Part shown: one piece after another, positions 10,207 to 54,278 of the stretch | Position numbering within the stretch: position 1 is the first letter of the stretch | Layout: every line of letters begins with the position of its first letter | Source: Candidatus Poseidoniales archaeon | GTDB taxonomy: Archaea; Thermoplasmatota; Poseidoniia; Poseidoniales; Poseidoniaceae | Reading direction: 5' to 3' | Assembly (NCBI GenBank): GCA_038106355.1 | Contig: JAYODQ010000006.1 | Span: forward strand, 6,628 to 70,627 | DNA: 64,000 nucleotides | Program-made: the position numbers and the translations under genes | Notes under the pieces: model-generated | What the model saw: only the letters and a program-made list of their open reading frames with translations | Told to the model about the DNA's origin: nothing | Databases searched by the model: none

Positions 10207-11261
10207 AACCTCTCTACCGTACTCTACCGGCATTCTTGGTTCTGCTTCTTGCTGCAGCACCAGCCTTGTATTACCAAGTTGGATTGTATGTGTATTTTGA
10301 AATTGCCAAAACAGATTTGGAATGTACCAGTCATGCCCCGTACAATACACCAGCCGAATTTGAACCCCACCTTTACCCAGAAAACATCGAAGGATACACT
10401 CACCAGTGGAATGACACCATCGTAGCGAATATAAGCCAATATTACATGCAATCATGGGAAAACGCTACCATTCACCTTGAAGATGAACCCATCAGTATTT
10501 CTGCATGGTATGTGGAACAAGATACAAATGCACCATGGGTGATTCTGATCCACGGCATCCGGTCATGCAAAGCAAATCACGAGGTTCTCATTCCCGCAGG
10601 GATGTTATCGAACAATGGGTTTAATGTCTTGATGATTGATCTGCGCGACCACTGGCAAAGTACGGTTGAAGATGAGTTAGTTTCTGCAGGTCAACGAGAA
10701 TGGCGGGATGTCTTGGCGGCTTGGTCTTGGCTTCAATCTGAAAAGGGTGTCCAGGCAGAACACATTGGGCTCTATGGTGCATCGATGGGGGCTGGAACTG
10801 CAGCCCTAACCTTCGCTCAAGAATCTATGATTCAATCTGTTTTCTTGGATTCTGTGTACTTCTCTATGGACACCATTTTGCGTGAAGAACTCGAATATCA
10901 GGGATTACCTCCTGTGTTGGTTGATGCTGCAATTTTCGCAGGTAAAATGTATTCAGGCGATGATATCGTCGATATTGAACCATATGAGGCGGCAGAGAGA
11001 CTCAATGGCCGTTGGATGTTTATCGCTCAGTCCAACAACGACACACGTATTCGATTGCATCACGGGAACAGTATGTGCGAGGCAGCCAAAGAGCATAGTG
11101 AACACGTTGAGTGTTGGTTTGCCGATTCTGCGGTACAATTCACCTCAGATGATGGTGAACAAGCAGTGCTTGCTCATGTAACATTGATGCTCACCCAACC
11201 AGAATTGTATGAACAAAAATTGGTGATGTTCTTTACACAATCACTCAACGCAGGAGTTTGA
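10203..11261 (+). CDS. Secreted or membrane-anchored alpha/beta hydrolase
   Basis: N-terminal hydrophobic segment, ILIHG, IDLRDHWQS, GASMG nucleophile elbow; ATGA overlap with psd. Confidence 0.85.
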   Translation: MKPLYRTLPAFLVLLLAAAPALYYQVGLYVYFEIAKTDLECTSHAPYNTPAEFEPHLYPENIEGYTHQWNDTIVANISQYYMQSWENATIHLEDEPISISAWYVEQDTNAPWVILIHGIRSCKANHEVLIPAGMLSNNGFNVLMIDLRDHWQSTVEDELVSAGQREWRDVLAAWSWLQSEKGVQAEHIGLYGASMGAGTAALTFAQESMIQSVFLDSVYFSMDTILREELEYQGLPPVLVDAAIFAGKMYSGDDIVDIEPYEAAERLNGRWMFIAQSNNDTRIRLHHGNSMCEAAKEHSEHVECWFADSAVQFTSDDGEQAVLAHVTLMLTQPELYEQKLVMFFTQSLNAGV

Positions 11262-12406
11262 TGCACATGGCCGAACATCATTCATTGCTTTCACCGACTT
11301 CAAAGAGGTTAAGAATTCATGACTTGGTCAAGGCACCAGAGAACACGCCATTCGCTCAAAAAAAGAAGCACGCATGGGATGCGAAAGACCCAGCATTGGT
11401 GTACCAAACTCCTGAAGTGACTGCTGAGGGTTCCATTTGTCAAGCAGCCACGATTATTTTGCGAACCAAAGGGTGCCACTGGTGGTGGTCATCAGGTTGT
11501 ACGTTTTGCGGTTACTTTAATGACACAAGGGACGACGTTACCTCAGATGACTTACATGCTCAATGGGAGGAAGCGAAGAAGAAGCTTGATCATTTTTCAG
11601 AAGTGGACATGGTTAAAGTCTATACTTCAGGTAGTTTGCTTGAAGACAGAGAAATCCCCCTCGACTTTCAAGAGACGGTCTTGAAAGACTGCCATGCACT
11701 TCAAAAGGAATTAATCATTGAAAGCCGATGTGAACAACTGACACAAGAGAAACTCTCTTGGGCAGTATCTCACAATCCGAAGTTTACTGTTGCCATTGGC
11801 CTAGAGGCGTACGATGATGAGGTCCTTCGATTTCACGTGAACAAAGGATTCACGACAGCATCTTGGCATCGAGCAGTAGAAAATTTGAGAGCATTTGATT
11901 TACGAGTAAAAACCTACCTCATGTTCAAACCGCCCTTCATGAGTGAAGCTGACGCCCTTGACCACTCAATTTCTTGGATTTCTTCTGTCGCTCCGCTCTC
12001 GGATGAGATATCGGTGAATCCAATGAATGTTCAGAATGGAACAGTCATCGATCGACTTTATCGCAACGGCGATTATCATCCACCTTGGTTGTGGTCTCTG
12101 GTCGAAATGATTCAGCGAAGTCACTTGGCCTTGGAACAAAACAATTCAAAAACACGGATTATCGTTCATCCAACGGCAGGAGGAAAACTTCGAGGCTCAC
12201 ACAATTGCGGTCAGTGCGATGCAGAGGTTGTTGCAGCCATCGAACGATATGCAGTATCGGCATCTCTCGAAGAATTTAGTGGCCTTTCTTGTGAGTGTAA
12301 ACTTCGATGGTCACTTGAGTTAGATTTGGAGCGAACGATGCCTTTGCCGTTAGGCATTTCCAAGCATCGCCGAACTTCAAAATTCGATAAACTTCGTTCA
12401 CCCTAA
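11261..12406 (+). CDS. Archaeosine-biosynthesis radical SAM protein (RaSEA-like)
   Basis: ILRTKGCHWWWSSGCTFCGY (CX7CX2C variant), YTSGS, AIGLE, KTYLMFKPPF, SVNPMNVQ, YHPPWLWSL, RGSHNCGQC. Confidence 0.85.
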   Translation: MHMAEHHSLLSPTSKRLRIHDLVKAPENTPFAQKKKHAWDAKDPALVYQTPEVTAEGSICQAATIILRTKGCHWWWSSGCTFCGYFNDTRDDVTSDDLHAQWEEAKKKLDHFSEVDMVKVYTSGSLLEDREIPLDFQETVLKDCHALQKELIIESRCEQLTQEKLSWAVSHNPKFTVAIGLEAYDDEVLRFHVNKGFTTASWHRAVENLRAFDLRVKTYLMFKPPFMSEADALDHSISWISSVAPLSDEISVNPMNVQNGTVIDRLYRNGDYHPPWLWSLVEMIQRSHLALEQNNSKTRIIVHPTAGGKLRGSHNCGQCDAEVVAAIERYAVSASLEEFSGLSCECKLRWSLELDLERTMPLPLGISKHRRTSKFDKLRSP

Positions 12407-12493: not shown

Positions 12494-12775
12494 GTGAGTA
12501 CGATGACAGATACATCAGTTCTTCCAGACACAACCGTTGGAAACAATGAACCAACCACGTCGAGAATGATTCTCGTGCTCATGGTCGTTGCTATTCTTGG
12601 ATTTTTTGCACTTTTTTCAAATATTTTTGGCTGGGATAATATCCCACTCCTCGGCGAAATTGTACCTTTGATAGGTAACCTTGGCGGAGGGGGAATTTGG
12701 TATTACCTCCTAGGATTCATCATCGGAATTGGTGCTATTGTTGCCACTCTTGTAGGGGAGATACTTGTCGATTGA
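12494..12775 (+). CDS. Small two-TM membrane protein
   Basis: Two hydrophobic stretches; 9-bp gap to the next gene; start GTG 12494 or ATG 12503. Confidence 0.7.
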   Translation: MSTMTDTSVLPDTTVGNNEPTTSRMILVLMVVAILGFFALFSNIFGWDNIPLLGEIVPLIGNLGGGGIWYYLLGFIIGIGAIVATLVGEILVD

Positions 12776-12784
12776 GGTGTTGAA

Positions 12785-14770
12785 ATGGATATTGTATTCT
12801 TCTTTGGTACCGCTCTTATTCTCGCTTTGTACTTTTTATCCCAATTTCTTGCCAAGGGCATTGGTGAAATGAAGTCAGTATTCACTCAAATTGGATTATT
12901 TATTTTGAAAAAGAATCCACCGGGTCTTGTCGACTTATTCAACGATGAAGACGGCAGTGGCTCAAAAACTTGGATGAATTTTGGAATGCTTTGGTTCTTT
13001 TTCGCAGGTATCCTTGGATTCCTCGTTGGCTGGCACACCTATGACCCGACAGCACTCAATTCATTGTCGAGTGTGGGTTGGTCCTACAATGACGGCTCCG
13101 CCCTCCTTGACTTTACTGTCAACGCCCTCAACATTGCATTGTTGCTTGGTCTTGTGGGGGGAGGTATGGTGGTCGTATCTCGAAATGCAAATGGACGTTT
13201 AGCAAGCGAGTCAAATGCATCGATGGTTGCCGTTCTCATGTCGGTTCTACTCATTACCCGACTCGTTTTACCGGGATTGATGAGTATTTTTGATATCGAT
13301 ACATCGTCAACCGGCATCGTGATTCTTTTGCTTTCACTTGAGACACTTGCCATTGCTGCCTTGCTCATTCCAGTTCTCATCAATCTCCTCGTGACCATTG
13401 GACAATCAAATGGTTCATCCCTTCTTACAGGCTCATGGTTTGTGATCATGGCAGTGACCGTGAAGATATTTGGATTAATGTTCATCTTCTTCGGCGAACT
13501 TGCAGACTCAACTCAAACGGTTTGGCTTGGCGAACGAGTTGCAAATGGTTGGGCGATTCTTGCTTTGTTGCTTGGAATGGGGTATTATGTTGTTCCTAAG
13601 GTCGCTGAGTCCCCAATTTGGTCACCATCGTTGAGAACGGCAAGCATGGTTCTCCTTTTTGTAACCCCAAGTGTATTCTTCATGACGTCATCAGACAGTA
13701 GCAACTTTTTGTCCAACGTCGGTGCTATCCTTCTCACCTTGTCCATGCTCCCGCTGTTTGCAGCAAGCGTGAACATCCTAATGACTGCAACCAATGGTTT
13801 TGACAAAGTGATGAATCACCCTGGCGCCCTAGCCGTCCTCTTGGCATTTTTCCTCCTGCCGTTCTTCGTGGTTGGTTCTTACTTTACCGCAATGGACGTA
13901 TTCGTAGGAACAGGTGAAATGACAAGCCTTGCAGCAATTATTGATGTTGGAGCAATGTTCACTATCGGTGGACTTGTACTTGTTGGAACGGTGTACACAA
14001 CCTATCCGTTGGCCTCAGGTAAGAAATTACCATCATCATCGACTGCCCATCTTTCGGTGTACATGATCTTCGTCGGTGGACTTGCATCAACAATTGCCTA
14101 TACCATCGGGGAGTTCTCAACCATGACCGTCAATGCACTTGCTCTTGAAGATGTAACAGCAGATGTTGGTGGTTATTACCTCACCGGCTCAGTCTTGTTT
14201 TACATCCTCCCAATCGGGGCACTCTTTGCTACATTGCTCATGATTCGAACAGGGATTTCAAGGTCAAATCAAGGAGCCATTGTTCAAGAAGCAGACATCA
14301 AATCTTACACATTGGTCTCCGGTGCCAAAACGACGATTCGGGACCTCATCGGACGTGGAGTTGGCATTGATACTGTTCTTGTACTCGCTAAAGAAGGGGA
14401 TGCCGAAGGAGGTACAACGCTCATCTCAGTTGGAGCAACGCTCCATGATGATGAAATCACAGAAATTCCAGACAAGGAAGTTGACCACCTTCTTGTCTTG
14501 CTCGCTAATCATCTCGTTGAGGAAAAGAAATCAGTTTTTGACTTGTTTCGACAATCCGATAAAGATGCAAGTGGTTCAATTGATGAACAAGAATTGATGG
14601 ATATTTTCTCAGACTTGGGGCAAGACCTTTCTGCGGCACAAACATCAGCGTTAGTACGCAGATTTGATATCGATGGAGATGGGTCCATCAACCTCCCTGA
14701 GATGGACATTCAAATCGCACTTATCAACGCGGCATACAATGTTTCATCATCCTCCGAAGAAGAAGAATGA
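12785..14770 (+). CDS. Heme-copper oxidase subunit I (cbb3 CcoN)-like polytopic membrane protein lacking His ligands, fused to two EF-hands
   Basis: ~12-13 TM segments; [21 protein letters not shown] and [18 protein letters not shown] resemble the CcoN YYFVPK...P(V/I)YS and LYHLVP motifs; EF loops [13 protein letters not shown] and [19 protein letters not shown] SD. Confidence 0.7.
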   Translation: [661 protein letters not shown]

Positions 14771-14779
14771 GGGTCTCAT

Positions 14780-16060
14780 GTGAAAATTGGTTTGGTCGGC
14801 AAACCAAATGTTGGTAAATCAACTTTCTTTAGTTCCTCAACTTTAGCGCATGTTGACATTGCGAATTATCCATTTTGTACCATTGACCCCAACATCGGCA
14901 TCGCATATGTTCGTTCTCCAATGCCTTGTCCCTGTCTTCAATTGCGAGAAAAGGCTGAATCAGAAGGCCGAGGACATCAGAATCAATCCAATGAAGATCG
15001 AAAGGGTAGCATATGCCAACCCCGAACTGGCTTTTGTATAGGTCATCAACGGTTTATTCCCGTTCAACTCGTCGATGTCGCAGGTTTGGTGCCAGGGGCG
15101 CATGAAGGACGGGGAAGAGGGAATGCATTTCTGGCAGATTTATCACACTGCGATGCATTAATTCACATTTTTGATGCATCGGGATCAACTGATATCGAAG
15201 GCCAATTTTTGGGATTTGACCAATCGTATGAGGCTATATTGCAACGTTCAAGTGAGGATATAGAATTTTTACAAGACGAGTTAGATTCATGGATTTTCCA
15301 GATCCTTTCCGAGGGTTGGAGCCGAGGAACAAGGAGAGTTCAATCCGAAGGTGAACGTGGTTTTGCATCTTTTTTGCTCGATAAATTAAGTGGCATAGGT
15401 GCCCAACAGTCGCACATCAATCAAACCATTCAAGACTACTTACACCAAGGTGGAGACGTATCTACGCCGTGGTCTCTCTCTGATGTTGAACAGAAAAAAC
15501 TTGCTACCATGTTGCGTACTCGAATTTTTCCGATTGTGTATGCAGGTAATAAATGCGATAAATTCGTTGATGCAAAGAAGTTGATGCAAGATCTTCACGT
15601 TGAATTTACTCCTTGTTTATCCGATTTGGAACTTGCATTACGGAGAGCTTCAGAGTCAAAAATCATCGATTACATTCCTGGCCAACCATCATTTTTAATT
15701 CGAGACCAAGTTGATCTCAATGATGCTCAAAAGAAAGCACTCGACCAAATGAAATCTTTGCTTGAGAAACATGGAACGACTGGGATTCTCCCGTTACTCG
15801 AACACATCATTTTTGAAATTCTCCGACAAGTTGTCGTTTTTCCAGTTCAAGATGAAAATCACTGGGTTGATGGTGAAGGACGAATTTTACCCGATGCATT
15901 CCTCGTGTCCTCAGAATCAAGTTGCAGAGAGATGGCTTACAAGGTTCACTCAGACCTTGGAGATGGTTTCATTCGAGCCATTCACGCAGTGACAAAGCGA
16001 ACCATAGGTGCAGATTATGTTGTTCAACCCAACGATGTCATCAAGATTCATTCAAAATAA
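14780..16060 (+). CDS. OBG-family GTPase, archaeal YchF/Ygr210-like, with C-terminal TGS domain
   Basis: GKPNVGKST, ANYPFCTIDPN, Cys-rich insert, DVAGLVPGAHEGRGRGNAFL, NKCD, AYKVHSDLGDGF. Confidence 0.92.
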   Translation: MKIGLVGKPNVGKSTFFSSSTLAHVDIANYPFCTIDPNIGIAYVRSPMPCPCLQLREKAESEGRGHQNQSNEDRKGSICQPRTGFCIGHQRFIPVQLVDVAGLVPGAHEGRGRGNAFLADLSHCDALIHIFDASGSTDIEGQFLGFDQSYEAILQRSSEDIEFLQDELDSWIFQILSEGWSRGTRRVQSEGERGFASFLLDKLSGIGAQQSHINQTIQDYLHQGGDVSTPWSLSDVEQKKLATMLRTRIFPIVYAGNKCDKFVDAKKLMQDLHVEFTPCLSDLELALRRASESKIIDYIPGQPSFLIRDQVDLNDAQKKALDQMKSLLEKHGTTGILPLLEHIIFEILRQVVVFPVQDENHWVDGEGRILPDAFLVSSESSCREMAYKVHSDLGDGFIRAIHAVTKRTIGADYVVQPNDVIKIHSK

Positions 16061-16447
16061 TCAATGCCCTTTAGGTCGCTCATATTTGGGGGTTAATCGA
16101 GCCATATCACCAGAGAATTTGCCTCCTCTGTAGATAAACCACACTGGACCGAGTGCGGTTAAGAGAAGGATAAGGATGAGAAAATAGGTGCCCCATGGGT
16201 CAATATTCGAGAGATACATCATCCAGAGTGTCCATAAGATCGGAATATAAAGCAGAATGCTGTACCTCCTTGCAACAATTCCAAATCGTGCATTTGCGAG
16301 GTCTCCACTGTACATGTTGGAGGCATCCGCCTTGGACACAAGTCCCAAATCAAGGCCGCAACGAACACATACCTGTGTTTTTGGTCCATTGCCGTGAATA
16401 AATTGTTCGCGAGGGTATGTACTGGCACAGTGTCTACACGTTGGCAT
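16061..16447 (-). CDS. Zinc-ribbon (CxxC...CxxC) membrane protein
   Basis: CRHC and CVRC followed by two TM segments. Confidence 0.7.
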   Translation of the reverse strand: MPTCRHCASTYPREQFIHGNGPKTQVCVRCGLDLGLVSKADASNMYSGDLANARFGIVARRYSILLYIPILWTLWMMYLSNIDPWGTYFLILILLLTALGPVWFIYRGGKFSGDMARLTPKYERPKGH

Positions 16448-18716: not shown

Positions 18717-19483
18717 GATTCCTTGTTGGATTGATGCTGATTGTAAAGTTGTTGAATTTGATGTGTTATGCTTTGGCTTGAACCAATTGGAATGGAGTCG
18801 ATTTCAAGGATCTGGGCAAAACCCACACCAGTACCACTAACAAATAGTTCTCGACATCTCCGAACCATTCGCTCAGTTAAGCGACCCGATTGAATGGCAA
18901 ATCCATGCTCGCTCAACTCTTTCTTGATCGCATCGAAGGTAATGCTTGCAACTCCGCCTGATTGATGAGATGCCATCCAAATCACACCATCCTCCGAAAT
19001 GAGGAGAGGAGTCGCACGGTCTGCATCAACAACATTGTTTTCATGCATGAACAAAGCGATATCAAATTGATGTTGATGTGCGATGTCTCGAGCCTCAAGA
19101 TATGGCCTCCAGTCTCCATGTTTACATCCGGTGATTGAACCGGGCCAACGTGGCGCAGCAATACTCATGGCCCGTAGATAAGGTCGATGAGGTGGCAGCG
19201 GCCGTGTTGTCGTTTGAACAACTCCATCAAATTGGACTTCGATCTTGACCAATTCATAGGCTTTGTATGGTTGACCTTGGTCATTGAAGAGTGGTTGAAG
19301 TTGTTTGAAAACATCCGATTCAAGTGTGTGAGGCAATTGTATTCCCAACCGGTCTGCATGTTGTTTCATTCGAAGAAAATGGAGGTGCCCATCCAACAGA
19401 TTTCCACACCCATCCCACACGCATGTCGTAAACACTGCGTCGACAGGTTGCTTCTGCGCATGAGTCATTGAGTAGGGCCTCAA
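18698..19483 (-). CDS. pabC: Class IV PLP enzyme, probable 4-amino-4-deoxychorismate lyase
   Basis: VFTT, HFLRMKQHA, GCKHGDW (PLP Lys), ELFVSGTGVG; adjacent to pabBA; likely start ATG 19468. Confidence 0.72.
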   Translation of the reverse strand: MRPYSMTHAQKQPVDAVFTTCVWDGCGNLLDGHLHFLRMKQHADRLGIQLPHTLESDVFKQLQPLFNDQGQPYKAYELVKIEVQFDGVVQTTTRPLPPHRPYLRAMSIAAPRWPGSITGCKHGDWRPYLEARDIAHQHQFDIALFMHENNVVDADRATPLLISEDGVIWMASHQSGGVASITFDAIKKELSEHGFAIQSGRLTERMVRRCRELFVSGTGVGFAQILEIDSIPIGSSQSITHQIQQLYNQHQSNKESWYSLG

Positions 19484-22400
19484 AGTAGGTCATCCAAAAA
19501 TGATGTGTCAATTGTTGTTGGTGCATTTTGTGGTGAGTTTTGCGTAGGCTGACTCAATTGTTGAGTGGGTTGTTGTATTGGTTGAAGAACTGGTTGAGTG
19601 GGTTGATACACCGCTCTACCAAATGCTCCTACTTGTTGGAAGGATTGAGGTTGTTCAGGTATTGAGGTGTTTTGAGCCGCTTCATAGCCTGTTTCGTTCC
19701 ATCTTGAATCCGTATCTATGCCCCATGTTGACTCTTGTAATTCCCAATCTTTGGAGACCCGCGTCGACCCTCCTGTTCCTCCGCGACCTCGAACAACGAA
19801 CACAAGGACGATGAGCAGAAGAAGTGCCAATCCAAGTGCAAGGAGCAATTCTTGGCTCAACAGGGCATTGATTGAGAACTCCGTTTCGTCTGAATCTTGG
19901 TTGTCTGTCCCGGTCGAATCCTCAACGCTATTGAGGACAACTGGTATCACTTCTTTCTCCATGCCTAAGGTATTGAACGGTGCAACAGCAATGTACCATC
20001 GTGATGTATTGACTAAATTTGGATAGTTTTCATTGTTGATGACAAATGAGGTTGCTCCCGCAACTTCAATGACGAAATCCGCTTCATCGGTACTGGAAAA
20101 ACCCTCATCCAAAATGTATATTCTCATTCCATCCACTCTGTCATCCACTGGATTTTGCCATTGTACCAAAATATCCTTCTCATCCACCCAAGATACTTTC
20201 ACATCTGTGGGTGTGCTGAGGGGGTCGTTTGCGGAAAATCCGCCATTATCAACGGATTGACCTTGAGTGACAAGGAGGTTCGATTTGTGGGCGTTGCCTG
20301 AAGCGTCAACTGCAACGACAGCAATCCAAATATCCAATCCAGCTATGATCGGAGTATCACCCGCGAGAAGTTCAATTCGGAGAGGCAATTCTGGAGCCCT
20401 GTTGAGGACCACAAGCGGTGTTGTCGGTCCGTCACCACCCACATTCACATTTGTGAATGCCCAGGTTGCACCGTAGATTTCGTAGGAGGCAATATCGGAG
20501 GCATCGGAGAGGTCGAAATCAACAAAAATCGCACTGCCATCATCGTTTGGTACATCAGAAATTACAACTGAATCAAGGCGATCAGGTGGAGTGTTATCGT
20601 TGATGTTGTCGATTGGAGTCACCGTTGCTTGTATCAAATCGTCGACATGAACGTTTCCTTTCAAGTCATGGACAGTGACCACGACGTAGAGTTTGATATC
20701 AGGCTTAATGAGTTGAGGTGTGGTAGCAAGCAGGTCTTGTCCACCGTAAAGACCAGTTGAAATGGTTAACTCAATCGGATTTGTTTTTTCGTCAATCCAT
20801 TGTTTTGAAAACGTAAAGCATCCACAGGTTTCAGCATTTGTTCCACGGGAGGCGTACAACCATGAGAGGTCACGTAATGGTTTGTCAGCAACCCAAACTG
20901 TGTAGGATGAGAAGTCGTCTGCTTCAGAAGGGGCCCATATGACATCGATTGCCGTTCCATCGTCATTGGGATGGTCAAAAGCCATGATATTGGTGATTCT
21001 ATCAGGAATCGAGCCTTGACCGACGACATTTTGGAGCGGAGTAACCGTCACGAGTGTGACAGCTGTGAGGTCAGCATTGAGCCATGCATCGTAAGCAACG
21101 ACACCCACCGCGTACATCTTTCCATCCACCAATGGAATGCCATCGAGTTGATTGATGATGACATCGGTTTCGTCACAAGGACTGACGACGGTTGCTTGTG
21201 AAAACGCGGTAACGTCACCCTGTTGAACATCGGGTAAATCCACATTCATATCCCATGGAGCCATGAACACTGCGTAGAATGAACAATCGGTCGCGGAACT
21301 TTCATTCCAACGAACGATGATTCTCCCACCTTCGTCGTTCGGAACATCTTCTGCTGAAGTTCCTTCAACTGGAGGAGGAGCCTGTTCGTCATTGAGGTCT
21401 CCTGTCGGCACAATCGGTCCGATGATGGTCACGTCTGATTTGTTTTCTTGACCCGAATCATCTTCGCAAGTAAATCCAATCCAATATGGGGTTTGAGGTG
21501 TGAGTGTAATAATCGATGTGTTGCCTTCGGTCATGTCAAATGTTGAGTGAACTTTCAATCCGATCACATCACTAAATTGTGTTTTTGACACGTACACATT
21601 GGTGGAGGCGAGGTCCAAAGCAGTGCATCGAGCCCATTCCAATTCGATTTCACCATCGGCACCATTGAGGTGAGGTTGGGCTTTTGCCCATACCGGGGGC
21701 CGCGGGATTTCGTCGGAAGGAGATGCTGGTCCAATTGGTGAAGGAATGTTCCCCCATCGCCCATCGTTGTATTTTGTGACAACAAGTGCGTAATATTCGG
21801 TGCCATCAATGAGGGTTTGTCCATTTGCAGTTGAAACATCCGTCGAAGTTCTGCTGTGGAGTGATATGATTTTATCAGGGGTCCTTTGACTTAGGTCGAG
21901 TTCAGTTGGTGCCATTGACCAAGGCCCTTGGTTGAGGAATACGTGGTATTGGGAAAAGTCAGGGTCATGTATGAGGGACCATTCGACCATCAATGTTGAA
22001 CCACCATCATCTGGACGATCGTAAATTGAACTCATTTGGATAGGTGTATCTCGGCGAATATAATCGTAACTTAATCGGATCAACATCGAACCATTTTGTG
22101 GCGATTGGAGTGTTAGTGACACATGCTGAGTATTGTTGAGTAACATTCCCGAATCGATAGCGTATTGCAAGTTTGATTGCAAATTCACATCGTTTGATAA
22201 GTTCAAAATGGCGTTGTATTTCAAATCAACAAGTTGAGTCCAAATCATGGCGTTCTCCACAGGAGAAGTAAACATGAGAGGCATGGTTGAGAATTGTATG
22301 TTGTGTGGTCCAGTAACATCACCGGCTAAATTGAGTTGCAATGGATTGGTCGAATCTATCAGTGATATCGCTTGGCCCACATGTGTTTGGGATGTGATAT

Positions 22401-25400
22401 TTCGAGCGATTGCACCTCCTGCTGTCGCCACTTGAAGCGGTTGTGCTCGTCTCAGCACGAAATCTTCGACATTGTTGTATTGCCCATTGTTTTCAAATCC
22501 AATCAATCCTTGATTGGTTGTTAACCAAAAGTGCGAAGAAGTGACGATACCTTGTCGGACTTCATTGACACCCTGAGGTGGCAAGGCTAAATTGAGAATC
22601 GAGTGAGACGAGGTTCGTGATTCGAGCATCGCGATGCCGTTGTTTGAACTGATGGTCACCAATTGGTTTCCATTACTCATAATGTCTCGTGCTGGCCACC
22701 AAGAGTTGAGATTGACAAAGCCTTGCCCCTCTTCAAAATCCCCACTGCTGCTGTTCCAGTGAATCATTTGTTGAGAGTTGAATGTCGACACATGGATGCC
22801 CCACCAATCGCTGGATAATGCAATCACAACGTTCGAGGGGAGTTGGTCAAATTTATGTGTCGAATCAACACTTGGAGGTGAAGTTCCAATGTCAAGAATA
22901 CTTACGCCAGGTCGCTCATCACCGCGCCCATCGTGTGAAACAAGGAGGCTGATTGAACCATCCGGATTTGTTCTCGGAGCAAACATCCATGAGGAGTCGC
23001 CATCAAGACCCTGAGCTTGCCCAATGGTTTGCAATTGAACTGACCCTTCATCAAATTCAACAATTCCGTCGGCCGTAGCGAAGTACACAAGGGAACCCTG
23101 TCCAGTTCCAGAACCGCCAACATACACATCGTTGACCACGGCGGCAGGCAAGCCATCAGCAGTGGTGATGGAATCCTCCCAATCTGCCGTTGAGTAGTTC
23201 CAAACGCCTACACCATTGTCGGTGGCGATGTACATGTGCGTTGAACTCGAACCGAAACCATTGACAATATTGGAGGGCAAACCTGCAATGAGTCTTCCTG
23301 TTGTGAAGGATTGTGAACCAAGATTGAATCGTTGAACTCCGGGGCTTGAACCAGATTGTGCTGCAAGTCCGATCACAAGTTCATTCCCATATCGGACAAT
23401 TCCGTCAAGATTTTCATGTAGTCCACCATTGATTTTTTGCAACTGTCCACTCGAAGATAGTTTAAACAGTCCATTTTGAATCGTTGAAAAGTAAATATCT
23501 GAATTGACCATTTCTGCATCATAAGCCACTGCACGACCGGGGAACGTCCATCCATAATCCCATTCAATGGTTCCGTTTTGCAAGAAATGACCTTTGAGAA
23601 CTCCGGTTGCAGCAAATGAATTTCCAGAACCACCATTGGTGGGGCGTGTGGTGACATAAACATGTGTTGAATTTCCCGTGATGGTACCCAACTGTCCACT
23701 TACGATACCAGGTAAGTCGAGCAAGACTTGTTCTCCAAGAATTGAAATGTTTGACACTCGACTGTACCCAGAAGAACCTCCCGCTTGGCCCATTAACCAA
23801 GATGAGCCAAGCCACTGGAATGATGTCGCAGAAGATCCCCCTCCCCGAACTGTTGCTTGACCAGTTGTTGCTCCGTTCGAGGTGAAAATTGAATATCCAC
23901 CAGCAATATCGTTACCGACGCCATGCCCAACAATCAGGCGTCCATTTGCCCAATCCAATCCGTCGTACCAAACGAGGTCTGAAGGCAATCCGTTTGCTGA
24001 GGTTGTGATTTGATTGAGCCATTGTTGAGTGGAATAACTGTATTTCGAAATACCCTGGTTGTTGTTGTAAAATCCAACATACAACGTTTGCGATGAATCA
24101 CATGCAACAGAAGCGACACCGAATCCACCAAAGTCAGAACGTTGGAACGGTGATACTGTGCTGGACTGGTTGTTGTTGATATTGAAACGTGCAATGGAAC
24201 CCGTGCCTTGGTACATCGCCATGTGGAGATATCCACCGCACATCGTGGCAGACATAGGATAACCATTCGGAATGTTGTTGGATTGACTGCTTCGATGAAG
24301 TGTCGTGATGTTCGTAATTCCGTTGATGTGTGTGACTACGCCTTCTTGGAAGAAATCTCCACCTCCAAAGTTCCCGTAAATACCACCGCCGATGATAAGA
24401 TGATTTCCATCGGTCCACAATTCAAAGAAATGCGAACCAGCATTATTTGGAAGGCCATTTCCTTCTGTCCATGTCGAGAGCCATTGTGAGTTTTGTTCAT
24501 CGTATCGAAGTATTCCATCTTCAGATGCTAACAACGTTGTTCCTTTCCATTCAACAATACCTCGAATGGGGAAATCAAACTGAGTCCAAGTACCGATGAG
24601 CGTATAGGTCGAGTCATAAAGTTCGAGTTTTGTTTCACCCCAAGCCACCCACGTGTTCCCGTAACTACTTTTGTACGCAGTGACGCGGTCGACCTGACCT
24701 TCGGGGAATACACTCGTTCCCCAAGAATTGTTTGATGTATTCCATAAAGCGAGACCGCCTGAACCCTCAGCATTCCACCACTGTCCTGAGGCTACTGAAG
24801 CGATAATGATGTCTCCAATCAGGCCGAGCCCGTAGATCACACCACCATTTTCGTTGACTTGAGGACCGGCATCAAGCAATGTCATTTGACTAAAGTTGGC
24901 GACATCAATTCGACCAATTGAATCTGAATTGTCACTTCTGTAATACATGACATTGTTGTGAAGAACCATTTGATACGGCTCAGAGGTTCCAGTGTAGAGG
25001 TTACTGTTTCGCTCAATATCGTAGACTTCCAAACCAGATGTGACATTGATCAGTTGGAAACCATCTCCTCCTCCAACCCAAAGATGATTCGGCCGGATAT
25101 CAGCGACAAGACCAGACACATCTTCGTTCCCATTGTCGAGTACATTGTCGAGTGTGTACGGTGTCAGCCATTGGTTTGTCGAAAGATCGTATCGAAGAAC
25201 ACCGAAACCATTGATTCCAATGTACGCAATGTTTCCAATAATCTCAACCACTGCATTACCTGATTGACCAAAATCGTTTTCCCAATTTTCTGACCATGTA
25301 AACGATGACTTGTCGATGAGGCCAGCACCACTCACAGTGCCGCCAAAGACGGTCGTTGCATTGGTTCCTACACTGTAGACTGCCCAGTTTGGCATTCCAT

Positions 25401-27816
25401 CCTGTTGGTTAATACAATCCTGCACTGCAAGGGTGCTCAATGTGTATTTGCACAGACCAATGTTTGTTCCAGCGTAAATGGCACTTCCCTCGACCATGAG
25501 GTCAAAGAATTGCGAGGGTCGGGTGCTCCAACTGCTTCCCAAACCGAAGGATGACACTGATTGACCATCCCATTTACGTGCCCCCTGTTGAGTTCCAATG
25601 TACAAATTACTTCCATCCGAAGCGAGAGCATAGACATTCGCTGATGGAAGGATAGCGAATCGATTACCACTGTTACCTTGTGCGGTCACCAAAGGTTGAA
25701 TGATTTCATTGAGAGAAAGGTCTTTTCGGGCAATACCAAATCCAGGTAATCCCAAGTGAAGGATGTCACCCATGATGGCTACCGGAGCAAAGTCAACCCC
25801 ATTCACACCAGTGGAGGCCCAAGGTTGTAAGAATGAGGTGGAGCTGATATTGTAACGTAAGACCCCTTCATCTTCTGATGCAATGTAAATGATTTGGTTG
25901 TGAATTGCAACATCGAGAAGGAAGGATGAATCAAGGCCGTTCTGTGTGTTAAACACATTCCAGCCCGAATTTGCGGACGTGTGGTCGATGTAAGCCATCA
26001 CACCTGAAGCAACGATCACCAAATTCGTTGAATCCACTGCACATCCTGAAAGTCGAGAACCGGTTTGCTGACTGCTTGAGTAAAATGTTTGAACTTGTCC
26101 TGAGGAAGAAACCTTTGAGACATCGCCATTTTCAAAGCATACAAAGATAGATTGTCCATCGGTTCGAAGAAAAGCGATATTGTTTTGATTTTGACTTCCC
26201 AAATTCGAAAAAGGAGAATCCCATTGGGCTGATGCAACATTGTATCGGTTGATGAGGCCCTCTGCACCGACATAAACGATGCCGTTTAATTCCACAATTC
26301 CCGTCATGTCGCCCGATGTTGGGCCGCTTGCGAGAACAATTTCAACATAAGATGAACTTCGGTCGGCGTTAAATGCAATCAATCGACCCGAACCATCGTC
26401 GATGAGCACCGGAGACCACGATGGGCCAAACTCGCCACCGGCAGGCCAAGAGAGAAGGCTTTGCCCATCACCTAAGAGTCCGAAGGTCGATGACAATCCG
26501 TAATTTCCACCACTCACAAAAACACCGCTTGTGAGGTTGTAGGTTTGGAGATTTTTTCCGTTCAAAATGTACAGGGTACTTGAATTGAGAGCAAGGCCAC
26601 CGACATAGTTTGAAGACAACCAATTCCCACTATTCCAACTTGAAAGCCAAAATCCAGAATTCCAATCGTATCGTCCAATTCCACTGTCATGCGATGCCAT
26701 GAAAATTTGGTTACCAACCACAAGAAAATTTGTTACTGAATCAGAGTGAAGGTTATTTGCAGTTGACCATTGGAACTTGACATTGCCACTTGTTGTATTG
26801 ATGGCTTGAACACCAAGATTTGCATGTGAAACATAAAGAACGCCGTTGTGGACAAGCATGGCAAGACCATCGTTAGGGCCAGAATTTTGCTGACCACTTG
26901 TCACCCAAGTTGAGGTTGTATTGGTCTGTTGAAGCGATGCTACGCCACCCGAATATGCAGCCCACCAAGTTTGACCATCGTGAATAAATTTGTTGAAATC
27001 ATAATTCGTTGGAGCATGTGGCAGACCATTTTGAATTGAATTATCATAAAGCGATAATCCAGAAAAATTTCCATCTTCGTGGAGGATGTGCAAAAGACCA
27101 CTCGACGCCTCAAGTTCAAGGTCGAGAATTCGTTCTTTTTGGAAATCGATCACATCAAGAATCGATGATGTCGTTCCGTCAAAGCCTAAGACGAGAATCG
27201 ATGTTCCAATCGCCATATACATCTTGTTATCGTTCACATCTCGTTCCGTATCAGTGATTTGGACGGTCACTTCCCGGAGTGAAATTGCAGGGTCTGCAGG
27301 AGAGAGTGCTTCAATAATCATCGTTGTAATTTCAGCATCGGTGGGGATTGTCACTTGTGCACCAGAATAACTATTCGGACTGAGTTGGCCTGATGCTGTT
27401 GAGGATGCAGGTGAACCATCGAACACATTTGTTTGACCGAGTGACCCCCAACCCCTCATGTCGACAATGTTGGCATTGTTTTGTTGTCCAAGGAAAAGAT
27501 GTGGTTCATCGATAATAATTCCATCTTGGCCACGGACTTGGATTTCGAGGTTGACATTTGAAACTTCAGCACCAGGAGCAAAGGTAAGATTCCAAGTCGC
27601 AGAAGCCTTTGTTCCCACAGCGGGATTTGCACCCGTTGTGGTCAATTGAACCCATCCTGTGTCGTTGCTTCCTTCTGTGGGCCATACGACATCTCCGGGC
27701 ACAGAATGTGCTTGAACAGGGGTGATGAGACCGAGTGGAATCGTGGTACTCAAGACCATAATGGCAATCATCAAAACGGCTGAAAACGCTTTGTTGTTCG
27801 GAGAGCGCTCCATCAT
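19480..27816 (-). CDS. Giant (2778 aa) cell-surface protein: signal peptide, multiple beta-propellers, FN3-like repeats, C-terminal TM and Q/P-rich tail
   Basis: N-terminal signal; recurring (N/D)GLP(S/N)(N/D)-type propeller blades; DxP(N/D)DxG-led FN3-like units; TM LLLALGLALLLLIVLVFVV followed by RGR. Confidence 0.85.
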   Translation of the reverse strand: MMERSPNNKAFSAVLMIAIMVLSTTIPLGLITPVQAHSVPGDVVWPTEGSNDTGWVQLTTTGANPAVGTKASATWNLTFAPGAEVSNVNLEIQVRGQDGIIIDEPHLFLGQQNNANIVDMRGWGSLGQTNVFDGSPASSTASGQLSPNSYSGAQVTIPTDAEITTMIIEALSPADPAISLREVTVQITDTERDVNDNKMYMAIGTSILVLGFDGTTSSILDVIDFQKERILDLELEASSGLLHILHEDGNFSGLSLYDNSIQNGLPHAPTNYDFNKFIHDGQTWWAAYSGGVASLQQTNTTSTWVTSGQQNSGPNDGLAMLVHNGVLYVSHANLGVQAINTTSGNVKFQWSTANNLHSDSVTNFLVVGNQIFMASHDSGIGRYDWNSGFWLSSWNSGNWLSSNYVGGLALNSSTLYILNGKNLQTYNLTSGVFVSGGNYGLSSTFGLLGDGQSLLSWPAGGEFGPSWSPVLIDDGSGRLIAFNADRSSSYVEIVLASGPTSGDMTGIVELNGIVYVGAEGLINRYNVASAQWDSPFSNLGSQNQNNIAFLRTDGQSIFVCFENGDVSKVSSSGQVQTFYSSSQQTGSRLSGCAVDSTNLVIVASGVMAYIDHTSANSGWNVFNTQNGLDSSFLLDVAIHNQIIYIASEDEGVLRYNISSTSFLQPWASTGVNGVDFAPVAIMGDILHLGLPGFGIARKDLSLNEIIQPLVTAQGNSGNRFAILPSANVYALASDGSNLYIGTQQGARKWDGQSVSSFGLGSSWSTRPSQFFDLMVEGSAIYAGTNIGLCKYTLSTLAVQDCINQQDGMPNWAVYSVGTNATTVFGGTVSGAGLIDKSSFTWSENWENDFGQSGNAVVEIIGNIAYIGINGFGVLRYDLSTNQWLTPYTLDNVLDNGNEDVSGLVADIRPNHLWVGGGDGFQLINVTSGLEVYDIERNSNLYTGTSEPYQMVLHNNVMYYRSDNSDSIGRIDVANFSQMTLLDAGPQVNENGGVIYGLGLIGDIIIASVASGQWWNAEGSGGLALWNTSNNSWGTSVFPEGQVDRVTAYKSSYGNTWVAWGETKLELYDSTYTLIGTWTQFDFPIRGIVEWKGTTLLASEDGILRYDEQNSQWLSTWTEGNGLPNNAGSHFFELWTDGNHLIIGGGIYGNFGGGDFFQEGVVTHINGITNITTLHRSSQSNNIPNGYPMSATMCGGYLHMAMYQGTGSIARFNINNNQSSTVSPFQRSDFGGFGVASVACDSSQTLYVGFYNNNQGISKYSYSTQQWLNQITTSANGLPSDLVWYDGLDWANGRLIVGHGVGNDIAGGYSIFTSNGATTGQATVRGGGSSATSFQWLGSSWLMGQAGGSSGYSRVSNISILGEQVLLDLPGIVSGQLGTITGNSTHVYVTTRPTNGGSGNSFAATGVLKGHFLQNGTIEWDYGWTFPGRAVAYDAEMVNSDIYFSTIQNGLFKLSSSGQLQKINGGLHENLDGIVRYGNELVIGLAAQSGSSPGVQRFNLGSQSFTTGRLIAGLPSNIVNGFGSSSTHMYIATDNGVGVWNYSTADWEDSITTADGLPAAVVNDVYVGGSGTGQGSLVYFATADGIVEFDEGSVQLQTIGQAQGLDGDSSWMFAPRTNPDGSISLLVSHDGRGDERPGVSILDIGTSPPSVDSTHKFDQLPSNVVIALSSDWWGIHVSTFNSQQMIHWNSSSGDFEEGQGFVNLNSWWPARDIMSNGNQLVTISSNNGIAMLESRTSSHSILNLALPPQGVNEVRQGIVTSSHFWLTTNQGLIGFENNGQYNNVEDFVLRRAQPLQVATAGGAIARNITSQTHVGQAISLIDSTNPLQLNLAGDVTGPHNIQFSTMPLMFTSPVENAMIWTQLVDLKYNAILNLSNDVNLQSNLQYAIDSGMLLNNTQHVSLTLQSPQNGSMLIRLSYDYIRRDTPIQMSSIYDRPDDGGSTLMVEWSLIHDPDFSQYHVFLNQGPWSMAPTELDLSQRTPDKIISLHSRTSTDVSTANGQTLIDGTEYYALVVTKYNDGRWGNIPSPIGPASPSDEIPRPPVWAKAQPHLNGADGEIELEWARCTALDLASTNVYVSKTQFSDVIGLKVHSTFDMTEGNTSIITLTPQTPYWIGFTCEDDSGQENKSDVTIIGPIVPTGDLNDEQAPPPVEGTSAEDVPNDEGGRIIVRWNESSATDCSFYAVFMAPWDMNVDLPDVQQGDVTAFSQATVVSPCDETDVIINQLDGIPLVDGKMYAVGVVAYDAWLNADLTAVTLVTVTPLQNVVGQGSIPDRITNIMAFDHPNDDGTAIDVIWAPSEADDFSSYTVWVADKPLRDLSWLYASRGTNAETCGCFTFSKQWIDEKTNPIELTISTGLYGGQDLLATTPQLIKPDIKLYVVVTVHDLKGNVHVDDLIQATVTPIDNINDNTPPDRLDSVVISDVPNDDGSAIFVDFDLSDASDIASYEIYGATWAFTNVNVGGDGPTTPLVVLNRAPELPLRIELLAGDTPIIAGLDIWIAVVAVDASGNAHKSNLLVTQGQSVDNGGFSANDPLSTPTDVKVSWVDEKDILVQWQNPVDDRVDGMRIYILDEGFSSTDEADFVIEVAGATSFVINNENYPNLVNTSRWYIAVAPFNTLGMEKEVIPVVLNSVEDSTGTDNQDSDETEFSINALLSQELLLALGLALLLLIVLVFVVRGRGGTGGSTRVSKDWELQESTWGIDTDSRWNETGYEAAQNTSIPEQPQSFQQVGAFGRAVYQPTQPVLQPIQQPTQQLSQPTQNSPQNAPTTIDTSFLDDLL

Positions 27817-38390: not shown

Positions 38391-38503
38391 GACTATGGCT
38401 CTTTCCTATGTTGAGTTTGTGTTTGAAGAACACAGAAGTCAAACTTTCGTAGCGGTGGATTGAAAGCACATCGTACCCGCGTTTGCATTGTCGAGGTAAT
38501 CCT

Positions 38504-41500
38504 ATGATTGAACTTAGGATGGAACAATGCTTGAAGGAAGTATTGGGATATCCGAAGCAAAATAGGCTCAAATCCGCTGTCCGCTCTCCTTCGTGGGAAC
38601 TCATTGATAAGCCGCACAAAGGCATTCTTTCCTTTGCGATGAATGAAGAAGAAATACCAGCAGAGGATGAGGAAAAAAGTTCAACGTCTCAACCTATGAG
38701 GTCAAAGGGCCGAAGATTAAGGAACAAAAGTAGAGGGCTCACATCAGCAATATCACCGTTTGAATATTTGCCCGAATTAAATGAAATGAATCAATATGAT
38801 CTTTCTTCAGCTTCAACCCTTGCAATTTTGCTTATTCGAAAGCAGATGAAAGACCCACAATGGAACGATGATTTTGATGCTCTTGAACAGGTCATGAGAA
38901 ACGATTGTCTTGAGAAAGGCGTTCATCCGGTTTGGCATATGGTTGCAGAAAAAACAAATTATCTCACTCAATTCCTGGCATTTTCAAAAGTTAGGCCAAA
39001 ATCAGAAACATCGACGATACCTTTTGATGTTACCAAAGTAGCAATCAATCCGACGAAATCCGCCCAAATCGTACATTTGTTATCTCACGCCTTGGCGACA
39101 ACAATAGATGCAAATTTGCAAGTTGCAATGAATCGATTAATTGGACAACTGCAATCTCCTTCTGGTCAAGCAGGTAAAGTTGAACATGAATTACTTGATA
39201 TGATTGGGGACCACAAATATTTGAGCATCGTGTTGAAATTTTTCATTCAACAACCCCTCAATGAATTGGACATTGAGTTTCTTCAAAATTCTCAAATCGA
39301 AGTCGCTGCACTTCTACATTTGTATCATCAATTCCAACTCAAAAATTACGCATCGTGGAAGACTGTCATCGAACTGAAAGGCGCGAATGAACTCGAGATG
39401 ATTCTTCTCGAAACACTTTGGATGAATATCCCCGATGAGGCATCTGAACTTTCTTCAGATGAACTTGAAAAGGGGATTGAACGAATTTTAAACATAACAA
39501 ATTCCAAAACCCAGATTGAAAAAATAAAATGGTGGAAAATGAGTGCATTGCAAAAAGAAGGAGCAGGCAGCATAGCATTAGAAGTGCTTCAGGATGTATC
39601 GATGAGCTCTTCGACCGATATCGACGCATTGTTGAAATTCCTCACCATGTTTCCCCAAAAAGACACTTCATCTTGGCTTGAAAAATATTTAGATGTGATC
39701 GATATTGATGGATTGAGTGCAATTCTCATTTCAAACCATTACGAAGGCGAATTACAACTACGTATCGCCCAGAAAATATTCGACACGCATGGTTTAGATG
39801 TTGAACAAGAACGAAGTTTTCTCCTGAAAGCGTTTGTGTGTGGCTTGGATTTTGAACGCTTAGTTCTCTTGTTCAGTTTGGACCCTGTGCTCAGTATGTC
39901 CTACCCTTATGATGCGTTATTTTGCTTTCATGCTACACCATCAGGACTGTCAGCAAACGATGAAAAAAAGTTCAATGAATTGAGATTTCATTCTATTCAA
40001 AGTTTAAACGACTCGCAAAGGCCCGATTATTTGTCAGATGCAACCGAAGAACTCCTTCTCCTTATGGAAGGAATCCAAAGTGAATCCAACGCCTTAATGA
40101 AAACCTTGGGTAATAAGACATACATCGATTTTTTACCAATCATCAACGCTCTTCATCACGGTATTGCAGAAGTCAACATCCAACAACACAGACTCGAAGC
40201 CGTAAAACTAAGGGTCGATAACATCGATAATTTATCAAACATTGAACGCCATTTATTCAACGTATTGTTTGCCACCATTTCTGTGAACAATATTCGCCAA
40301 GCATTTCACAATCGAATGGAGGATCATGAGCAACGAAAGACATTGTCAAGTATCGTCAAAGAACCTTTTTTCACGCTGACTATATTACATACCATTCATG
40401 AACTTGTGTTGGATTATGATTTAGGCATTCCTGAATTGGTCGAGTGGTATCAACGTTGGAGTCCATCTTCTCCGTGGCAAACTCTCTCCCGAGCAGCCAA
40501 TCATGTCGCACGAAATGAGCAACTCAATGCAGCGAGAGAATACAAACGAATTGCAGATCAAATCCATCAGGTTCGAATCCAATCAGATAAAGGGAAACAG
40601 AGTGAAGAAGAAGTGAGTTATTACATAGAGCAAGGAGTTTTTGGCATAGAACAAGAAATTGCGTTGTACAGAAAGGCACTTATCCATTACGCCCATGCTG
40701 AACATTGGTCCGAGGCTTTGGAATTACTCGAAAAGAATGCATCTTTAAAATCGGCCCTCACAAAACGATTCCAACTCTATCTAAATGTGTCTGATTTAGC
40801 CAGTCGTCAACAATCTGGACCAGCAACTCGTCGCATTTTGGACCATGTTCATAAGAAGCAAGATGCGAAAAATGAACACGATGAAGGTCATCGACATCGG
40901 GACACATACGATGAAGAAGAACTTGAAATCTTGCGAAGTTACACAACCAGTCACGCGGTTCATTTGCCAGGAAAACCGTTCAATGGTCGGGTGATAGCAG
41001 CCCACACCGAATTGTCACGAAATTTGTCGAGAAATCGAGATGAATTTGAACGAAGGTACCAAACACTTGCCAAGGAAAAGAAATTGGATACGATGGCTGT
41101 CTATCAACTTGCGAAGGATGCAAGTCAGGAGAGTCCTCTTACTGGATTAAAAATTCTTGAGAGAGCCCAACATCAATCCAATATCACATCAAAGCAACGC
41201 GATAGTTTGCAGGCAGCTGAGTTGAATTTATTCAAATCACATGAGTCTGAAATTGCGCTCAAACACAGAAGTCAGTTACGCCAATTAAATTTGAAGCCTC
41301 TTGTTATCGTCGATACCAACATCCTTGTCAACGCGCTCATTGAAGAGGTGTACGCCCATCTAGGCATTATTATCGGTCATCAACGTTCCTCAATGAACCA
41401 AAGTGATTCGCTTGGAGATGTTCTGCCCAATTCTGGGCTTGGTGATTTTTTCAGATTTTTGAAAAATCAAGCGGATTCGGGTAAAATTTTCCTCCATGTG

Positions 41501-50849: not shown

Positions 50850-50952
50850 CCGGATGACATGCAAACATACTCAAATAGAACAGTTTAAGCAAAATGGCGG
50901 CATAGTCATAATATACGAAGTTCACAGGAGTATAAGCGGGGTGGGTTATCCA

Positions 50953-54252: not shown

Positions 54253-54278
54253 GGAACTTCGTTCCGGGTGATGCTTTC

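Follow-up and report, generated by a model that had tools for sequence, protein, structure and literature searches.

What can a relative of a respiratory oxidase do once every ligand of its haems and copper is gone? The question is posed by one gene in a 64,000-nucleotide stretch of DNA, here called the window, from a Candidatus Poseidoniales archaeon (Poseidoniaceae; assembly GCA_038106355.1, contig JAYODQ010000006.1, positions 6,628-70,627, forward strand). The gene encodes a 661-residue membrane protein, referred to below as the oxidase-like protein, and is positioned between the genes of a small two-helix protein and a GTPase. The sequence comparisons indicate that it very probably encodes a cofactor-less descendant of subunit I of the C-family (cbb3-type) haem-copper oxidases. 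Coordinates of open reading frames (ORFs) in the window are window positions throughout.

Homology to subunit I of cbb3 oxidases

A hydropathy scan distinguishes 13 hydrophobic segments in the 661-residue protein. Twelve of them are colinear with CcoN, the subunit I of cbb3 oxidases, and the remaining one is an extra N-terminal helix (residues 3-25). When residues 1-527 are compared with the PDB by phmmer, just two chains fall below E 0.1, both of them cbb3 subunit I (6xkw_n, E 1.1e-5; 9g83_t, E 1.7e-5). A profile built from nine sequences of the family reaches 1.3e-12, and all of its matches at E≤10 are cbb3 CcoN chains. With a 38-sequence profile the best value is 2.1e-13, and the five distinct sequences matched at E≤10 are all cbb3 CcoN. 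No A- or B-type oxidase, nitric oxide reductase (NOR) or unrelated membrane protein appears at E≤10 in these PDB searches with family profiles. The family profile was also aligned by hhalign with a natural CcoN annotated on a Phyllobacterium plasmid (L046), a divergent cbb3 sequence that scores 211 bits with TIGR00780 against a cut-off of 583. The alignment has a probability of 98.1% and an E-value of 7e-14 over 391 columns (query 49-468, template 12-426); it begins ahead of helix 1 and extends to helix 12. The CcoN-like scaffold of about 12-13 transmembrane helices, which an earlier note on this DNA had proposed from alignment by eye, is thus borne out.

General domain models recognize parts of the family. 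The relatives P0130 (43.2 bits) and P0140 (42 bits) exceed the cut-off of 34.8 bits of Pfam COX1 (PF00115), and these two are among the three of 21 relatives that match COX1 at E≤0.01. The window protein itself has a faint match to a cbb3 subunit I/II model of NCBIfam (E 0.0018). In a feature search of the ESM Atlas with the homologues P0019 and P0158, 24 of 30 matches are COX1 clusters with a score of 0.92, which serves as a lead. Judged by its sequence, the window protein is genuinely, though very distantly, homologous to CcoN and nearest to the C-family, with a likeness far beyond chance.

Origin of the gene by duplication of the organism's own A-type COX1 is rejected. The hhalign probability to the resident COX1 is only 1.3%, and therefore the oxidase-like gene is not a recent copy of it. 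The genome of the archaeon (G000, completeness 93.8%) carries a normal COX2-COX1-COX3 operon on contig C76, and the oxidase-like gene is on contig C53. The resident COX1 (L001:1258-3600, minus strand, C76) is 781 residues long, and its COX1 domain covers only residues 247-700, with about 246 residues before the domain; COX2 is located upstream and a COX3-like gene downstream.

The partners of a cbb3 oxidase are missing. FixO/CcoO (PF02433) has no match at E≤0.01 in the 93.8% complete genome, and no respiratory genes were found among the 34 ORFs of the window that were scanned, in agreement with the earlier claim that no ccoO, ccoP or other respiratory genes are nearby. Occurrence was analysed in 151 Poseidoniales genomes and in a sample of 301 genomes of the phylum, 237 of which are from outside the order. 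None of the 301 phylum genomes contains a true ccoN above the TIGR00780 cut-off. The Poseidoniales family is homologous to CcoN but falls outside the cbb3 oxidase family, because the defining ligands and partners were looked for and are absent.

Loss of haem and copper ligands

Ligand positions are numbered according to CcoN of P. stutzeri, counted along the alignment with 3mk7_A. We take H60 and H347 to be the ligands of the low-spin haem b and H345 to be the ligand of haem b3, and all three match conserved histidines of the templates. Y251 is presumed to be the tyrosine of the His-Tyr cross-link of CcoN. The CuB ligands are H207, H257 and H258, as given in the available text of PMC3578206.

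Every one of these positions is occupied by another residue in the window protein. F110 is in the H60 column, and R251 (E250 in the pairwise phmmer alignment) is in the H207 column. The columns of H257 and H258 contain F298 and F299 according to HMMER and BLASTP, or S296 and V297 according to hhalign. Those of H345 and H347 hold, depending on the aligner, I385 and D387, I386 and V388 (hhalign), or G389 and M391 (BLASTP). The Y251 column contains F292 (phmmer, BLASTP) or L290 (hhalign), and a tyrosine is found there in one of 55 relatives. The window protein has three histidines in its first 500 residues and none in the four ligand regions (residues 107-113, 249-252, 294-300 and 384-389). Therefore, the ligand loss does not depend on alignment offsets of one to four residues. 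The claim that all six haem and CuB histidines are absent is confirmed both by the alignments and by these residue counts.

The loss extends to the family, which was surveyed in 55 non-identical relatives; f1, f2 and f3 denote families of the order and f4 its sister order, with f1 probably corresponding to Poseidoniaceae and f3 to Thalassarchaeaceae. None of the 55 relatives has an HH pair in helix 7 or an HxH motif in helix 10, and histidines are missing from all four ligand regions in 23 of them. A histidine is present in the H207 column of 18 relatives, namely 16 f3 loci, the f3-like P0158 and one f1 locus (L030). In f3 it is embedded in the sequence WLLFHLSGG or WLVYHMIGG, compared with WWYGHNAVG of CcoN. 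The column of the family richest in histidine has it in 31 of 55 sequences and is not a ligand site. The two ligand columns of helix 10 are occupied by Ser or Thr (47/55) and by Asp (29/55), Glu (5) or Asn (5), together 39/55; the Asp residues are in the H347 column. The window protein has Ile, not Ser or Thr, at column 385.

Since all six histidines and the cross-link tyrosine are replaced, and CcoO and CcoP are absent, reduction of O2 or NO is not possible. According to the part of PMC11214002 available, known haem-copper families all keep these histidines, the sole exception being a His-to-Asp replacement in gNOR.

Organization of the locus

The oxidase-like gene belongs to a row of four genes on the plus strand:

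11258..12406, plus strand: archaeosine radical-SAM enzyme RaSEA (TIGR01210, 284.7 bits, cut-off 212), 88 bases before the small ORF
12503..12775, plus strand: small partner protein of 90 residues with two hydrophobic helices (ORF list and starts of orthologues)
12785..14770, plus strand: His-less oxidase-like ORF of 661 residues (ORF list)
12785..14245, plus strand: oxidase-like membrane core, residues 1-487 (homology mapping, hydropathy and His counts)
14294..14419, plus strand: conserved tail motif, residues 504-545 (family alignment)
14531..14704, plus strand: EF-hand pair, residues 583-640, with loops at residues 592-603 and 628-639 (Pfam EF-hand_7 and calmodulin match)
14780..16060, plus strand: YchF-related GTPase with TGS domain, 426 residues (NCBIfam NF007171, 429.7 bits, cut-off 387; Pfam domains)

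The gaps between the small ORF and the oxidase-like ORF and between the latter and the GTPase gene are nine bases each, just as the earlier note had described the flanking two-helix ORF and GTPase. A Shine-Dalgarno-like GAGGTG is positioned five nucleotides before the ATG at 12785 of the oxidase-like gene, and a similar GAGGGT stands just before the GTG start of the GTPase gene, which is probably co-transcribed with the oxidase-like gene.

The two-helix partner protein

The ORF list starts the small ORF at GTG 12494, which gives 93 residues (12494..12775). The starts of orthologues point to ATG 12503 and 90 residues, and this is the most likely start. The motifs of the small protein are E-P (residues 19-20 of the 93-residue form), P51 and SGIW.

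Among 39 loci compared from other genomes, a homologue of the small protein is encoded directly upstream of the oxidase-like gene in 38, and the contig of the 39th ends 20 bases upstream of that gene. The homologues are about 90 residues long, and their genes end 5-27 bp before the oxidase-like gene, with one overlap of 4 bp. The partner profile is found in 63 of the 301 phylum genomes, which are G000 and exactly the 62 genomes of the order with the oxidase-like gene, and in none of the 237 genomes from outside the order. The coordinates of the two genes adjoin in all 12 rows compared. The partner is better conserved than the oxidase-like protein, for example with 65% compared to 45% identity in L030, and its median dN/dS is 0.06 (14 pairs). 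The two genes form a fixed, strictly co-occurring pair, and the suggestion of the two-helix ORF as a partner subunit is upheld, at the level of a partner gene, by this adjacency and by co-occurrence over 301 genomes.

The partner has no Pfam match above the cut-off (DUF3021 is sub-threshold) and no match in the PDB or among PHROGs. Its descent from CcoO or CoxII as a relic is rejected at the level of sequence, with probabilities of 0.2% and 0.1%, respectively.

The C-terminal tail

The tail of the window protein is formed of 174 hydrophilic and acidic residues. It is probably cytoplasmic, considering the CcoN topology and helix order and the charge distribution according to the positive-inside rule. 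Directly after the last helix it carries the motif Y-x-L...T-(T/S)-(I/V)-R-x-L-L-x-x-G-x-G-x-D-T-x-L...G-x-T, which is present in every Poseidoniales family, with R519 and G525 invariant and T516, D529 and T530 nearly invariant. A profile of the tail motif has no match in the PDB. A possible relation to DHHA1-like domains was dropped: a single sequence matched archaeal RecJ2 at E 0.011, and a 22-sequence tail profile matched nothing at E≤10.

The EF-hand pair scores 36.6 bits with Pfam EF-hand_7 (PF13499, cut-off 30 bits) and matches calmodulin chains at E 5e-15. Both 12-residue loops have Asp at position 1, Gly at position 6 and Glu at position 12. They read as canonical, as the earlier note had stated, and are predicted to bind Ca2+. 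Two EF-hand loops are present in all 12 f1 loci and in the single f2 locus, and in none of the 27 f3 loci, which keep the membrane core and the partner gene even though they lack EF-hands. The f3 proteins are 527-616 residues long and mostly end soon after the tail motif. Since the core is kept where the EF-hands are absent, Ca2+ sensing is not the core function; the EF-hands are a lineage-specific addition and not the reason for which the fold was kept. The idea of a Ca2+-regulated co-option is borne out with regard to the loss of ligands and is not supported with regard to Ca2+ as the core function.

Other modules are attached to the tail elsewhere in the family. In 21 representatives scanned for tail domains, EF-hands are found in 13 and SAP domains in 11, including two that are devoid of EF-hands (P0140 and P0151). 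The 862-residue protein of L038 (f1) contains a helix-hairpin-helix domain (HHH_5, 30.7 bits) in place of SAP. Nucleic-acid-binding tail modules of other genera were noted in L038:2488-5073 (plus strand), L031, L040, L037, P0140 and P0151. In the window protein the EF-hand pair is the sole module, followed by an acidic run that ends in SSSEEEE. With regard to C-termini in general, 23 of 55 sequences have at least three acidic residues among the last four, and another 17 end in TEL; the acidic or TEL ends may be a short recognition motif.

The genome of the archaeon contains seven places with an EF-hand pair. The six besides the one described are above the Pfam cut-off (C21:105029-105214, C34:41114-41290, C20:23957-24139, C10:201-368, C88:7718-7876 and C83:25307-25477) and lie in ORFs that encode 130 to 848 residues. 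EF-hands seem to be unusually common in this archaeon. The window also contains, at 54249-55415 on the plus strand, a gene of the Na+/Ca2+ exchanger family (Na_Ca_ex, E 8e-40), whose product may hold down the Ca2+ level of the cytoplasm. The seven EF-hand-pair places and the exchanger make Ca2+ signalling plausible in this organism. Poseidoniales-specific families with Ca-binding domains are noted in the available portion of PMC9258230.

Distribution, selection and descent

A profile search finds the oxidase-like gene in 150 of 151 Poseidoniales genomes and in all 22 genera, nearly always as a single copy in an open frame. Of the 58 Poseidoniales genomes with a completeness of 90% or more, 57 have it. 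The one genome without the oxidase-like gene also lacks the partner gene, and therefore a missing contig is likely. In the 301-genome sample, the gene is present in 40 of 41 f1 genomes, 22 of 22 f3 genomes and none of the eight genomes of the sister order f4. The window stretch itself was recovered, in part or whole, from 20 DNA runs of nine studies of estuary, lagoon, freshwater and seawater metagenomes; no RNA run carrying it is among those listed.

Outside the order, one of 237 genomes (G380) has a weak match (E 3.8e-4), which is rejected as an orthologue since it is a different, 471-residue COX1-like ORF that keeps the HVH motif. This ORF (P0271; L042:2596-4008, minus strand), from another family of the phylum, matches Pfam COX1 at E 0.0024 over profile positions 10-396 and overlaps a long frame that is spurious except for the part encoding an Ogt methyltransferase. 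P0271 could be a further case of a small and unusual oxidase-like protein.

The dN/dS of the oxidase-like gene (Nei-Gojobori, pairs with 0.05<dS<1.5) has a median of 0.064 and a range of 0.041-0.121 in 19 pairs, all from f3. The gene is under strong purifying selection and is not decaying. Identity is 54% even within a genus, and the family has no Pfam entry of its own. In a quick maximum-likelihood tree all f1 loci form one clade (SH-aLRT 95) and all f3 loci another (98), which fits vertical descent. We are highly confident that the gene has been inherited vertically since the ancestor of Poseidoniales. The root of the tree is unreliable because the branch to the CcoN outgroup is four changes per column long, and a single gain of the EF-hands and their loss in f3 are both compatible with the tree. 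A survey of Poseidoniales, which the earlier note had recommended, thus shows that the synteny is conserved and that the EF-hand fusion is conserved in f1 and f2 and not in f3.

Gene neighbourhood

RaSEA is encoded upstream in 38 of the 39 other loci, and in L017 the contig ends. The GTPase gene is downstream of the oxidase-like gene likewise in 38 loci, and in L038 the contig ends. RaSEA and the GTPase are on separate contigs in all four outgroup genomes that have both. In the sister order f4 the GTPase gene follows a gene for a CARDB/Ig-like surface protein instead. A general link with the GTPase was dropped for these two reasons. The order of the four genes is a trait of Poseidoniales and is no proof that the oxidase-like protein works with the GTPase. 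In the f4 loci L043:810-4022 and L045:67-3786, the last 1-4 bases of the surface protein gene, which encodes 1070-1239 residues, are shared with the YchF-like GTPase gene.

Beyond the GTPase gene, on the opposite strand, an ORF of 128 residues (16061-16447, minus strand) begins with Cys-x2-Cys ... Cys-x2-Cys, has two hydrophobic helices and no Pfam match, and is kept in nine of 12 f1/f2 loci. Three further ORFs of the window encode 2778 (19483-27816, minus strand), 1174 (38483-42004, plus strand) and 1191 residues (50677-54249, plus strand), with no Pfam match at E≤1e-5.

Proposed role and alternative explanations

It is plausible, at rather less than even chances, that the dead-oxidase core and the small protein provide a membrane scaffold of which the cytoplasmic tail is the working end. 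According to this tentative proposal, the core and the 90-residue protein would together be embedded in the membrane, and the output of the scaffold would be the C-terminal tail with its TTIRxLLxxGxGxDT motif. Individual lineages would have added an EF-hand pair, SAP or helix-hairpin-helix modules onto this tail. In the organism studied here, binding of Ca2+ would switch the conformation of the tail and thereby decide which partner from the cytoplasm is retained at the membrane. Candidates for this partner are the GTPase of the same operon and, in the SAP and helix-hairpin-helix forms, nucleic acid.

Several observations weigh against the homology and the scaffold as formulated here. The window protein has no match to Pfam COX1 at E≤1. 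That the protein has this fold and pairs with the small protein is deduced from sequence and gene order, and the tie to the GTPase is one of gene order only, which differs in the sister order as described above. The dN/dS pairs are all from f3 because the f1 pairs are saturated. The window protein is without SAP or helix-hairpin-helix domains, and therefore nucleic-acid tethering cannot be its own role. Conserved columns number 23 of 157 on the probable cytoplasmic side and 8 of 89 in the outer loops, which is a weak enrichment; the notion of a clearly more conserved cytoplasmic face was dropped, as the outer face is constrained as well. Lastly, polar residues within the helices are conserved (N330 is invariant, T334, N200 and T204 are conserved in at least 90%, and S141/E142 in at least 80% of sequences), and such residues are as compatible with an ion path as with a scaffold.

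The last point leads to the strongest alternative, in which protons or cations would pass through the vacated haem/CuB cavity, or through a remnant of the proton path, under the control of the EF-hand pair or, in a looser version, without any gate. In addition to the conserved polar residues, the Ser/Thr and Asp/Glu/Asn residues in the helix-10 ligand columns would be in keeping with such a channel. EF-hand pairs gate membrane carriers, for example mitochondrial ATP-Mg/Pi carriers, and by analogy could do so here. However, the supposed gate is missing from the 27 f3 loci despite the conserved core, and the window protein has the aliphatic Ile at column 385. The residues that we take to form the proton path of cbb3 oxidases (T215, S240, H243 and Y251) are mostly replaced, their counterparts being L259, R284, S287 and F292. 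Nothing shows the reuse of the proton channel that the earlier note had considered. Furthermore, no similarity to transporter families was found in Pfam, NCBIfam or the PDB. A channel is rather unlikely.

A broader version of the scaffold reading is doubtful and is put forward as speculation. It would make the family the first cofactor-free lineage of haem-copper oxidases, in which an ancient C-family core, obtained or retained by the Poseidoniales ancestor, and a dedicated mini-subunit act as a membrane signalling or tethering machine. An ion would be bound in, or conducted through, the cavity with its present lining of Ser/Thr, Asp and Asn. The tail would pass this signal on to the cytoplasm through Ca2+ at the EF-hands, to a translation-linked GTPase and, where SAP or helix-hairpin-helix modules are present, to nucleic acid.

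It is improbable that the protein is a non-catalytic subunit, assembly factor or organizer of the respiratory chain, associated through former oxidase surfaces with the A-type oxidase or an unusual complex III. The descent from an oxidase subunit would agree with such a role, and the available text of Tully 2019 (PMC6336850) describes the electron transport chain of these archaea as non-canonical. The gene also occurs throughout an aerobic order in whose genomes the COX2-COX1-COX3 operon is normal, but it is unlinked to that operon, and the genes conserved beside it serve tRNA modification or encode a GTPase. We know of no oxidase accessory subunits with SAP, helix-hairpin-helix or EF-hand tails.

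Retention of redox activity, with haem or metal bound by unconventional ligands, is very improbable. It could appeal to the histidine in the CuB H207 column of one third of the relatives (18/55) and to W247, conserved in at least 80%, which is equivalent to W203, a residue whose role is taken from the text available of PMC3578206. Opposed to it are the absence of any column with more histidines than the non-ligand one mentioned above (31/55), of HH and HxH motifs in all 55 relatives and of histidines in the ligand regions of the window protein. In addition, there is no CcoO to deliver electrons, and the known families retain these histidines apart from the one in gNOR (PMC11214002, in the part available). 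A decaying pseudogene or chance frame, which the strong divergence and the lack of a Pfam family might suggest and which the earlier note had named as a refuting observation, is practically excluded by an intact single ORF in 150 of 151 genomes, a dN/dS of about 0.06 and motifs conserved across three families.

Significance of a cofactor-less oxidase-like family

In the literature covered, from which the supplementary family tables of PMC9258230 were left out, no description was found of this family or of any haem-copper oxidase homologue without the histidine ligands, and no paper was found that joins 'pseudoenzyme' with 'heme-copper oxidase'. The terms 'cbb3' and 'ccoN' do not occur in the main text, as far as available, of the two principal genome studies of the group, Tully 2019 (PMC6336850) and Rinke 2019. 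Relatives are annotated publicly as 'hypothetical' or 'EF-hand domain-containing'.

The haems held by histidines and CuB are treated as defining for haem-copper oxidases. A branch without all of them that is under purifying selection shows a second, non-redox use of the scaffold, and its near-universal presence in one of the most abundant archaeal groups of the ocean provides a concrete target for finding that use. The occurrence of a C-family-like core in an order without a detected true cbb3 oxidase bears on the spread of oxidase families. Annotation pipelines that score the Poseidoniales protein as subunit I of a cbb3 oxidase would mistakenly predict microaerobic respiration. The fixed 90-residue partner and the changing tail modules (EF-hand, SAP and helix-hairpin-helix) are testable handles for archaeal Ca2+ signalling.

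Comparison with known systems

The closest known structures are those of CcoN (PDB 3mk7/5djq, 6xkw, 8smr, 9g6b and 9g83), whose 12-helix core is colinear with the Poseidoniales protein over about 390 columns and probably has the same topology. The two share the tryptophan equivalent to W203 and the motifs G..YY.VP....P.(W/Y)S, P..(A/G)..N...T and YP...GR.L. Unlike CcoN, the Poseidoniales protein has lost the six His ligands and the cross-linked Tyr, has gained an N-terminal helix and a long cytoplasmic tail with EF-hands, and is without the partners CcoO, CcoP and CcoQ.

The NOR branches of the superfamily (cNOR, qNOR and eNOR/bNOR/sNOR/gNOR/nNOR), as described in the available part of PMC11214002, likewise no longer reduce O2 and are devoid of the active-site tyrosine, and gNOR tolerates the replacement of one active-site histidine. 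However, NORs keep both haems and the metal site, whereas the Poseidoniales protein is without any ligand.

The nearest report, within the available text of Meheust et al. 2022 (PMC9258230), is that of the halobacterial fam02696, an unannotated distant homologue of subunit I recognized by HMM-HMM comparison. Like the Poseidoniales family, it is a lineage-specific archaeal relative of subunit I. Compared by description, fam02696 adjoins real cbb3 or NOR genes in Halobacteria, whereas the Poseidoniales family adjoins the small protein and the GTPase, with no C-family oxidase.

Two further systems, which are not related to the Poseidoniales protein in sequence or fold, offer analogies to the proposed scaffold. 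The mitochondrial ATP-Mg/Pi carriers likewise bear a cytoplasmic EF-hand pair on a membrane core. The inactive rhomboids (iRhoms and Derlins) use a polytopic enzyme fold without catalytic residues as a platform, as the emptied oxidase core of Poseidoniales may do.

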